In this document: one piece after another, positions 39,701-42,700 of the stretch
Numbering within the stretch: the stretch's first letter is position 1
How the letters are laid out: every line of letters begins with the position of its first letter
Made by a program: the position numbers and the translations under genes
Origin: Flaccisagitta enflata
Taxonomy: Eukaryota
Reading direction: 5' to 3'
DNA: 64,000 bases
NCBI GenBank assembly: GCA_965153355.1
Contig: OZ231126.1
Coordinates: 9,548,001-9,612,000 of the forward strand
Notes under the pieces: generated by a model
What the model was told of the DNA's origin: nothing
What the model saw: only the letters and a program-made list of their open reading frames with translations
Database searches by the model: none

Positions 39701-42700
39701 TTAAAATAGTGTAAAACGTCGAAAAAAAGCAAAGTGTTTCCGACCGACGGACCGACCGACCGACGGACAGAGTGGGTTGTAGAGTCGCGTGCACGCGACT
39801 AAAAAGAACAACTTGTTGCGTGAATGAAATAGATCATAACTTGACTTACGTATATGCTAGCGTGTATGTACACGACGTACACGTGCGAGCGTACATGATC
39901 GTCAACTACACACACAGTCTCTTCTGACGAACCAATAAATTGAACTGGAAATGCAGGGCTGATCACGCTCCTTCTTGGGTCATGGAATTGACGAAATACG
40001 CCAAATTGTATTTGGATCGTCGATTGACCGGAACCTTCGATGCCATGCCTGAAAAATACGAGGAATTCATCAAGAACTTCGGCACGCATTACTTCCAAGA
40101 CGCCTTCTTTGGAGGCATGCTCAAACTGCTCGTCGAGACGGAGAGCAGCTACTTCGAGACTTCCACGACAGTCGGAGTCGGTCTTCAAGCTGAGGGACTC
40201 TTCGGCCAAATTGTCAAGTTGAAAGGCGGCGTCGGAGTCAGTAACACAAATGTTGATGGCAACTTTAAGAAATCAAGCAGAGAATCCATGAGGTTTGTTA
40301 TCAATTGTTTTTTCTGTCTGTCTGTCTCTGTCGGTCTGTCTGCCTGTCTGTCTGTCGTTGGAGTCAGCAACACAAATGTTGATGGCAACTTTAAGAAGTC
40401 AAGCAGAGAATCCATGAGGTTTGTTATCAATTGTTTTGTCTGTCTGTTAATCTGTCTGTCTGTCTGTCTGTCTGTCTGTCTGTCTGTCTGTCTGTCTGTC
40501 TAGCGTCAGAGTCAGTAACACAAATGTTTATGGCAACTTTAAGAAATCAAGCAGAGAATCCATGAGGTTTGTTATCAATTGTTTTTTCTGTCTGTCTGTC
40601 TCTGTCGGTCTGTCTGCCTGTCTGTCTGTCGTTGGAGTCAGCAACACAAATGTTGATGGCAACTTTAAGAAGTCAAGCAGAGAATCCATGAGGTTTGTTA
40701 TCAATTGTTTTGTCTGTCTGTTAATCTGTCTGTCTGTCTGTCTGTCTGTCTGTCTGTCTGTCTGTCTGTCTGTCTGTCTAGCGTCAGAGTCAGTAACACA
40801 AATGTTAGTGGCAACTTTAAGAAATCAAGCAGAGAATCCATGAGGTTTGTTATCAATTGTTTTTTCTGTCTGTCTGTCTCTGTCGGTCTGTCTGCCTGTC
40901 TGTCTGTCGTTGGAGTCAGCAACACAAATGTTGATGGCAACTTTAAGAAGTCAAGCAGAGAATCCATGAGGTTTGTTATCAATTGTTTTGTCTGTCTGTT
41001 AATCTGTCTGTCTGTCTGTCTGTCTGTCTGTCTGTCTGTCTGTCTGTCTGTCTAGCGTCAGAGTCAGTAACACAAATGTTAGTGGCAACTTTAAGAAATC
41101 AAGCAGAGAATCCATGAGGTTTGTTATCAATGGTTTTGTCTGTCTGTCTGTCTTTCTGTCTGTCTAGCGGTCTTGCCATGGAGTCAGTAACACAAATGTT
41201 AATGGCAATATTAAGAAATCAAGCAGAGAATCCATGAGGTTTGTTATCAATTGTTTTGTCTGACTGTCTGTCTGTCTGGCGGTCTGGCGTTGGAGTCAGT
41301 AACACAAACGTAGATGGCAACTTTAGGAAATCAAGCAGAGAATCCATGAGGTTTGTTATATCAATTGTTTTGTCAGTCTGACAATGTCTATATGCCTGAC
41401 TGACTGTCTGTCTGTCTGTCTGTCTGTCTGTTAGTCTAGCGTTGGAGTCAGTAACACAAATGTCGATGGCAACTTTAAGAAATCAAGCAGAGAATCTATG
41501 AGGTTTGTTATCAATTGTTTTGTCAGTCTGTTTGTCTGTCTGTCTGTATGTCTGTCTGTCTGTCTGGCGTCGGAATCAGTAACACAAACGTTGATGGCAA
41601 CTTTAAGAAATCAAGCAGAGAATCCTTGAGGTTTGGTATAAGACAATTAATATGACTCGTCTGTCTGTCTGGCGTTGTAGTCAGCAACACAAAGGTCGAT
41701 GGCGACTTTAACAAATCCCACAGAGAATCCATGAGGTTTGACTGGTCTGCCTGTCTGTCTGTCTGTCTGTCTGTCTACCTGCTTGTCAGTCAGTCAGTCT
41801 GTCTATCTGTCTGGCGTCGGAGTCAGTAACACAAACATAGAAGGGAACCTGAAGATATCAAGGGGATTATCCATGAGCTTTGATATCTATTGGTTGTCTG
41901 TCTGTCTACTTGTGTTTGTCAGTCTATCGGTCGTACGTCTGTGACGTGCAGAATGTTGAAAATCCCAATCCTATATATAAAGTACAAATCTAACCACACC
42001 GTTACTTACACGCAGGTATTACGGAGGATCCTTGAATTTACTTGATTCTGCTGGTATTAAAGAATGGATGCCGACTGTCATCGGGAATCCTTGGTTGTTC
42101 AGAGGAAATTTGGTGCCGCTTTATGAGCTTTTCCAAGATCCAACCCAAAAGAAAGAAATGAAATTGGCCGTTCAAGTTCATCTGGATAAGGCCTATCTTA
42201 AGGTATCTCGCAAAAGTTTTTTTTTCTTAAACCGATGATGATGTAAGATGTGTGATTTTCATTTGTTTTTCTTACAGTCGCTCGTGTTTTTTTTGTCGCG
42301 TGCATGTGACGCGTTATCTCGGTCGGTTGGTCTGTTGGTCAGTCGGTTACTTCTTTTGAAACACCCAGCTTAATTTACTAATTATCTTTTACATCACTGC
42401 CCCGACATGCCAAAATCTTCGATTAACATTTTTACAAGAGTGTATATAATTGAATGGCTCTTGATTTTATTCCCCCCCCTGCCTTTAATTTTCTTCCCCG
42501 CGACGCGTCATGTCGCGTTACAAAATTTCTGATTTTCTTCTCCACAAAGCAATAAAACAGTATATTTTAGGTTTAAATAGTGTTGTAGTAATCAAATTTT
42601 ACCTTTTGGTACTACCAAATTTTCTCTCTTTTCTTTTAAGCTTTTGATTTTTTTCCCCATCTCTAAACCCTTTGATTTTATTCCCCCACCGGGGGATAGG

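Follow-up and report, generated by a model that had tools for sequence, protein, structure and literature searches.

The 64,000-nucleotide (nt) stretch of Flaccisagitta enflata contig OZ231126.1 analysed here (positions 9,548,001 to 9,612,000; hereafter the window) carries on its plus strand a MACPF gene of ten exons, mapped with transcript-derived proteins from that same gene, and the fifth intron of this gene is filled with copies of the end of exon 5. We asked whether these copies serve as alternative exons or are a repeat that leaves with the intron. A sequence-only reading had proposed that four of them are cassette exons whose alternative inclusion could lengthen or vary a membrane-inserting hairpin, and had named as its own alternative a neutral, microsatellite-driven duplication leaving decoy donors. 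Analyses of RNA contigs, database proteins and sequence constraint indicated that this alternative is the best fit to the data: the array is most probably a young, probably neutral microsatellite-driven minisatellite that lies across the exon 5/intron 5 boundary and is removed with intron 5. In the RNA seen, the protein is unchanged by the array.

The 62-nt end of exon 5 was found 13 times head to tail between positions 40231 and 41883, once as the live exon end and 12 times as copies within intron 5 (Table 1). A 59-nt probe with up to three mismatches matched 11 sites, while each of 100 dinucleotide shuffles gave 0, and the array of 12 further copies described from the letters alone was thereby confirmed. 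Tandem Repeats Finder reported a period of 274 nt with 3.9 copies, 95% matches and a score of 1870. The copies are spaced 105-152 nt apart with a 274-nt higher-order period, and the array has the form of a minisatellite or variable number tandem repeat (VNTR), i.e. head-to-tail units of 10-300 nt. Each unit begins with the exon end, about 65 nt counted from the GGC that precedes 40231, and continues through the donor and 19 nt of unique intron sequence, GTTTGTTATCAATTGTTTT, into a (TGTC)n tract. The donor had been assigned to all 12 copies; GT follows 11 of them, while copy 13 reads CT. None of the 12 contains a stop in the exon frame, which is expected because the changes per copy are so few, and divergence from the exon copy increases in the direction of exon 6.

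The upstream part of the array is built of three higher-order units, each composed of a B-type copy, an A-type copy and a (TGTC)n tract, and the live exon end lies in the first of them. The units differ by 2-3 substitutions and by 4-nt microsatellite steps, and their identity at 271-272 of 274 positions suggests that they are of recent origin.

Four runs were aligned on positions 39100-43020. Contig X5 from a metatranscriptome (1571 nt, depth 21.5) carries exons 4-5-6-7 and contig X9 from an oligo-dT library (805 nt, depth 6.8) carries exons 4-5-6, in both cases with contiguous coordinates. In these contigs, which derive from two studies, exons 5 and 6 are joined without any intervening letter; the joint 40290->42014 (cut at +2, i.e. 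40292->42016) skips 1723 nt bounded by GT..AG. RNA-contig depth was 0 in the bins of cassettes 1, 3 and 4, and among the joints listed, which were all but 16 of lower support, none touched any cassette, cassette 2 included. The sequence-only reading had held that deep transcript data with the 40292->42016 junction only would speak against its cassettes; this was indeed the only junction found, in data (assembled contigs, and a raw run, X23, with zero exon reads) that reach such depth only weakly.

Database proteins gave the same picture. The gene's own 90% cluster has six members, five of which span the junction (P0001 and P0014-P0017); none of the five has an insert, all read S[RK]ESMRYYGG, and P0014, P0015 and P0017 represent the allele of this window (SSRESM). 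Likewise, none of 13 relatives (68-95% identity, transcript-length contigs retrieved by an exon-5 search among longer proteins) showed a gap or an insert at ...ESMRYYGG. In three clusters the full-length members are 616-619, 612-614 and 613-614 amino acids (aa) long, respectively, and no full-length member exceeds the usual length of its cluster by 21 aa. A 41-aa in-frame query starting with the cassette-1 peptide retrieved only the cluster P0181-P0184, consisting of exon-5 read-throughs, and zero spliced isoforms. Residues specific to the copies (RESL or other) were found in none of the transcript-derived proteins. The exon-5 peptide scan of metagenome_contigs gave 107 pattern matches, of which 0 were confirmed, the gene being absent from that collection; three candidates from a 20-nt motif scan of the same collection (L001-L003) were rejected as chance matches in unrelated sequence. 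Use of the cassettes is thus unsupported by the two RNA contigs, the database proteins and the relatives.

Comparison with relatives indicated that the region concerned varies little in length. In the 80-row alignment described below, 61 residues separate the signature GG from YYGG in 52 of the 76 anchored rows (13 of the 76 being close family; the other four rows lack the anchors). This span ranges from 44 to 76, so that 82 aa, i.e. 21 longer, is reached by none of the 76; the family tolerates little change of length at this point. Of the 35 distinct variants that the copies hold, 10 are synonymous and 25 non-synonymous; the synonymous share of 29% compares with an expectation of 20% (36 of 180 possible single changes), or 23% with a 2:1 transition weight. 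The copy variants therefore appear to fit neutrality, with no sign of selection on the peptide, and no purifying selection was detected on the copied coding part. The 19-nt intron part is conserved at 19 of 19 positions in eight of copies 2-10 and at 18 of 19 in the ninth; the intron-derived part is as conserved as the exon-derived part, and conservation therefore reflects age, not coding.

A comparison with paralogues, which the sequence-only reading had called for, was obtained for the minus-strand paralogue in the window: it has an intron at the same position, of 285 nt with (GT)n(CT)n, containing zero exon-end copies. Read-throughs of three close relatives showed no array copies within the 10-26 intron codons visible. 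Residue 297 of P0014, within exon 5, is R (SSRESM) in all window copies except the diverged copy 13, whereas K or another residue stands there in the 12 relatives at greater distance and also in two proteins from the gene's own cluster; both SSKESM and SSRESM alleles occur among transcripts of that one 90% cluster. The array therefore post-dates the K->R change or was homogenised after it.

Table 1. Exons, array copies and repeat units of the MACPF gene (window positions; mismatches are counted against the exon copy per 62 nt)
Feature	Position	Strand	Mismatches	Evidence and remarks
Exon 1	starts 36702, 3' end unmapped	+		Splice mapping with transcript-derived proteins
Exon 2	ends 37474, 5' end unmapped	+		Splice mapping
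Exon 3	37918-37972	+		Splice mapping
Exon 4	39127-39368	+		Splice mapping
Exon 5	39957-40292	+		Splice mapping against P0014; present in RNA contigs X5 and X9, joined there to exons 4 and 6
Intron 5	40293-42015	+		1723 nt, GT..AG; contains the whole array; RNA contigs and splice mapping
Copy 1, live exon end	40231-40292	+	0	VGVSNTNVDGNFKKSSRESM + AG, then donor GTTTGT, used by RNA contigs
Copy 2, A type	40357-40418	+	3	3 synonymous changes; GT donor, no AG acceptor
Copy 3, B type (candidate cassette 1)	40504-40566	+	2	62-nt copy starts at 40505; tctag/C + 62 nt + GT; peptide SVRVSNTNVYGNFKKSSRESM
Copy 4, A type	40631-40692	+	3	Identical to copy 2; no acceptor
Copy 5, B type (candidate cassette 2)	40782-40844	+	3	62-nt copy starts at 40783; peptide SVRVSNTNVSGNFKKSSRESM
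Copy 6, A type	40909-40970	+	3	Identical to copy 2; no acceptor
Copy 7, B type (candidate cassette 3)	41056-41118	+	3	62-nt copy starts at 41057; 62 nt identical to copy 5
Copy 8	41177-41238	+	6	Nearest upstream AG gives a 71-nt out-of-frame unit
Copy 9	41289-41350	+	4	No acceptor (tctgg/C)
Copy 10 (candidate cassette 4)	41440-41502	+	3	62-nt copy starts at 41441; tctag/C; 3 synonymous changes, peptide identical to exon end
Copy 11 (..RESL)	41569-41630	+	3	No acceptor; intron tail rearranged; also in DNA-run contig 41576-41738 and P0184
Copy 12	41674-41735	+	10	No acceptor; also in DNA-run contig 41576-41738
Copy 13	41816-41877	+	12	Most diverged; donor lost (CT)
(TGTC)16 microsatellite with terminal TAG	40437-40501	+		Equivalents at 40711-40779 and 40989-41053
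Three higher-order units	40231-40504, 40505-40782, 40783-41056	+		274-278 nt; 271-272/274 identical, as assembled
Exon 6	42016-42202	+		(R)YYGGSLNLL..., core strand after TMH2; RNA contigs, splice mapping, model
Exon 7	42859-42988	+		Splice mapping
Exon 8	44181-44304	+		Splice mapping
Exon 9	52230-52464	+		Splice mapping
Exon 10	53955 to about 54236	+		Splice mapping

The family identity of the host gene was established by profile and fold. Pfam MACPF (PF01823) scored 58.1 bits on P0001 against a curated cut-off of 21.5 (E 1.8e-15), and exon 5 alone scored 38 bits (E 2.6e-9). The MACPF signature motif is [YWF]-G-[TS]-H-[FY]-x6-G-G; it is present as FGTHYFQDAFFGG at residues 230-242 of P0014, and G231, T232, H233 and G241 are invariant across the 80 alignment rows. 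Exon 5 holds this signature and most of the second transmembrane hairpin region (TMH2, also cluster of helices 2 or CH2). The assignment to MACPF thus stands, by a Pfam score above cut-off and a fold match to perforin, MPEG-1, C8/C9 and TgPLP1. The stretch sequence is present in marine metagenome and metatranscriptome runs, and the host of the array is a marine planktonic eukaryote.

A structure of P0014 was predicted with AlphaFold2 from an alignment of 80 rows (P0014 with 12 close relatives, plus 67 matches chosen from 150 listed for their coverage of the MACPF part; 82 matches, mostly fragments or covering only the C-terminal part, were excluded, and P0009 was already among the close relatives). 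The model has a predicted local distance difference test (pLDDT) value of 90.2 and a predicted template modelling score (pTM) of 0.84; it replaced a model from a 13-row alignment that was dropped at a pLDDT of 52 for the MACPF part. It shows the MACPF fold, a central sheet with two helix clusters between core strands. TMH1 corresponds to helices 138-173 between strands 130-135 and 176-192, and TMH2 to helices within 252-294 (252-256, 260-277 and 290-294), flanked by the signature strand at 233-251 and by the core strand that follows at 296-303 (SRESMRYY). Foldseek matched perforin, MPEG-1, C8, C9 and TgPLP1 at probability 1.00, with E values of 1e-15 to 1e-10 that include Plu-MACPF and GNIP1Aa, and TgPLP1 reached a template modelling score of 0.72 on target.

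The copied peptide corresponds in this model to residues 281-300, which supports its placement, proposed from sequence, between the signature strand and the next core strand. As modelled, it comprises the strand-proximal polar last third of TMH2 and the first five core-strand residues, and not the amphipathic tip. In MACPF proteins the TMH2/CH2 region refolds into a membrane hairpin, in agreement with the titles of the matched PDB entries. A 21-residue insert at this point would lengthen only the returning hairpin arm, and a symmetric longer hairpin would not be the simple outcome.

This putative pore former shares with the MACPF/perforin proteins perforin (3nsj), MPEG-1 (6u2l), TgPLP1 (5own), C8/C9 and bacterial GNIP1Aa (6fbm) the signature, the bent central sheet and the two helix clusters; identity to solved MACPF chains is only 10-16%. 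Unlike those chains, its C-terminal half consists of three Cys-rich beta repeats without a Pfam match. These repeats occupy the C-terminal third (about residues 424-619 of P0014; exons 44181-44304, 52230-52464 and 53955-54236), are confidently modelled and follow the pattern C-x-K-x-G-x-x-T-x-x-Y-x-D-x-[TS]-D-x-x-x-G-G-C-x-x-S-[WF]. Over the whole chain, the best fold matches come from bacteria, namely the insecticidal MACPF proteins GNIP1Aa and Mpf2Ba1, whose C-terminal part is a three-fold 'beta-tripod'.

Inspection of the intronic copies showed that four of the 12, copies 3, 5, 7 and 10, combine an exon copy with both splice sites and a kept frame, each reading AG + 63 nt + GT in phase 2-2, stop-free, with a (TGTC)n-TAG acceptor upstream. 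Coordinates, length, open frame and peptides (SVRVSNTNVYGN.., SVRVSNTNVSGN.. twice and SVGVSNTNVDGN..) agree with the earlier description, as does the TTAAT motif that precedes the first three. Over the 62 nt, copies 5 and 7 have the same sequence, from which copy 3 departs at two letters. The remaining eight copies have no in-frame acceptor, and copy 13 among them has no donor either; copy 8 shares the TAG, but eight extra letters shift its frame. Older copies read tctgg/C where the cassette-like copies read tctag/C, and the AG therefore goes back to a G->A change where microsatellite and copy meet, multiplied afterwards by the latest duplication. Copies 3, 5 and 7 sit in near-identical higher-order units, and the four cassettes do not represent four independent events.

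The frame of exon 5 also runs on without a stop across the first spacer and copy 2 until it reaches a TAG at 40501-40503. The copy-2 donor (40418/GT), absent from the earlier description, is a candidate alternative 5' splice site adding 126 nt, or 42 aa, in frame; it is unused in RNA contigs X5 and X9.

Conditional inclusion of between one and four 63-nt units, each adding 21 residues at the strand-proximal end of TMH2 and giving variant or dominant-negative pore subunits, is in our view unlikely. Several observations do weigh for it and against a merely neutral repeat. In addition to the intact architecture of the four units, their donor is the very sequence working at exon 5, exon 4 is itself spliced at a tctag acceptor preceded by a TGTC-like tract, and zero AG lie between the TTAAT motif and the acceptor, so that their splice signals are credible; the insertion point falls within the TMH2 region of a confident model. 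Copy 10 has three synonymous and no non-synonymous changes, and copy 11 retains 59 of 62 exon positions and 15 of 19 in its intron tail, each being a single case. The RNA evidence is moreover shallow and weak against minor isoforms: contigs drop these and miss those below about 1/10 of transcripts, and the raw poly(A) run X23, of which about 6% was read, covers none of the exons in 39100-43020, its reads there being confined to microsatellite-like parts, and is uninformative on splicing. Rare, conditional or tissue-specific inclusion may thus be compatible with the depth reached. However, the insert is found in 0 of 2 RNA contigs, 0 of 5 own-gene proteins and 0 of 13 relatives, none of which has a longer isoform, the TMH2 span is never 21 aa longer in the relatives, and synonymous change is not in excess. 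A single very recent duplication produced three of the four units, which are about 99% identical, and the extra residues would enter one hairpin arm only, so that a simply longer hairpin would not result. RNA contigs, proteins, span length and constraint all speak otherwise, and the proposal of alternative inclusion received no support from them. It seems very unlikely, too, that the array is an exon nursery at birth, in which a copy-number-variable repeat yields the four in-frame units, equipped with a proven donor and a usable TAG acceptor, and the in-frame +126-nt copy-2 donor, and minor or condition-specific transcripts include 63-nt units; if this were true, MACPF subunits with 21-84 extra residues beside the TMH2 core strand could poison or retune the pore ring.

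Two further explanations concern the DNA itself. Unspliced copies might act as a reservoir from which unequal crossing-over or gene conversion feeds variant codons (e.g. M->L, V->I, D->N/Y/S) into exon 5 and shifts copy number, producing protein and length polymorphism in the population; we hold this to be highly improbable. The first higher-order unit, with the live exon end, is 99% identical to the next two, and four gene calls from another archive extend beyond exon 5 to take in the spacer, copy 2 and tails belonging to copies 9, 10 and 11: P0182 contains exon 5, the first spacer and copy 2, followed by a tail of the kind seen in copy 9, P0181 goes on with a copy-10-type tail, and P0184 has exon 5 ending in RESL with the tail of copy 11. 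The source contigs of P0181-P0184 are either DNA or unspliced RNA, and the joins in these three calls may be shorter haplotypes arising by unequal crossing-over or jumps between copies in short-read assembly. Short-read assemblers do jump among 60-nt repeats, so the joins are perhaps assembly paths and not haplotypes; the transcript-derived proteins lack such residues, and even a real reservoir would be a side effect of a neutral repeat and not a selected function. That the number of near-identical 274-nt units was inflated or collapsed by the assembly is very improbable, although microsatellites flank the units, their identity is 99%, and the short-read DNA contigs do not span them. The substitutions and microsatellite steps noted above tell the units apart, copies 8-13 are older and too diverged for such an error, and two DNA runs of the organism, possibly the assembly's own source, contained fractions of 0.70 and 0.68 of the words sampled from 39957-42202. 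Parts of the array were also seen in an independent marine DNA run, whose contigs cover 41576-41738 and 41829-42278, and in the gene calls of the other archive.

A young minisatellite removed with intron 5 would account for the locus in the following way. Head-to-tail copying of the unit would most plausibly have started from the microsatellite, through unequal crossing-over or through slippage during replication. The copies adjoining exon 6 are the oldest and the most diverged, and in the newest step a 274-nt two-copy unit, with the live exon end inside it, was tripled. Where microsatellite and copy meet, a TGG->TAG change supplied AG to some units, and four copies therefore resemble in-frame 63-nt exons, a look spread as a by-product by the latest duplications and not evidence of use. 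In the RNA seen, the spliceosome pairs the donor 40292/GT with the acceptor AG/42016, and the array leaves with the 1723-nt intron. All extra copies lie downstream of the first donor, and the array is therefore spliced out and the protein unchanged.

Tandem duplication is not confined to intron 5. In intron 3 (38260-39074), about 110 nt of unique sequence and (TG)n(GA)n, without exon content, recur in tandem three times at a period of about 369 nt, the copies being 86-100% alike. This is the same kind of event as the exon-end array, and the process is both general and local. The window contains dozens of micro- and minisatellites. Minus-strand open reading frames at the array are (TDRQ)n microsatellite translations only, and Rfam gave zero families in 39000-43000.

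The very long intron 8 (44305-52229, 7925 nt) is rich in (AAC)n, (AC)n, (AGAA)n and (GAGA)n tracts; open frames of low complexity and great length result from them and are traps for gene callers. Two further MACPF paralogues flank the gene, at 29557-31883 on the minus strand and at 57324-64000 on the plus strand, forming a small MACPF gene cluster; tblastn pieces are about 30-40% identical for the former and 54-82% for the latter, which extends past the window end.

As it stands, the array is an ordinary intronic tandem repeat with an unchanged gene product. Its value is modest, that of a clean and datable case of a boundary-spanning, microsatellite-driven duplication making candidate exons and decoy donors, and it is a caution for gene prediction in repeat-rich genomes. 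A literature search of article texts retrieved no work joining MACPF, TMH2 and 'splice variant', and the tandem-exon papers listed likewise included none; if inclusion were true, this would be the first case found of splice-level variation within the MACPF TMH2 region.

The array shares features with several known systems. Tandem exon duplication is a known source of alternative (cassette or mutually exclusive) exons, as reviewed in PMC9013439 and PMC9741552. As there, exon sequence has been copied into the adjacent intron with splice sites and frame; unlike in that kind of duplication, only the exon 3' end and the donor have been copied here, the acceptors are new point changes in the microsatellite, and the copies are very young (about 99%), in no transcript and without coding constraint. 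In the intron-gain-by-duplication model, of which PMC4974935 gives an example, a tandem duplication spanning a splice site is spliced out and the mRNA is unchanged. The present array agrees with the model in that a splice site is duplicated, the duplicate is removed and the mRNA is the same, and differs in that an existing intron has been lengthened and filled with decoy donors, with zero new introns. The array also resembles intronic minisatellites or VNTRs, in its 105-152-nt head-to-tail units, 274-nt higher-order period, microsatellite spacers and age gradient. Unlike in a typical repeat of that class, the unit was born of an exon/intron boundary, and each unit therefore has coding-like sequence and a live-type donor.

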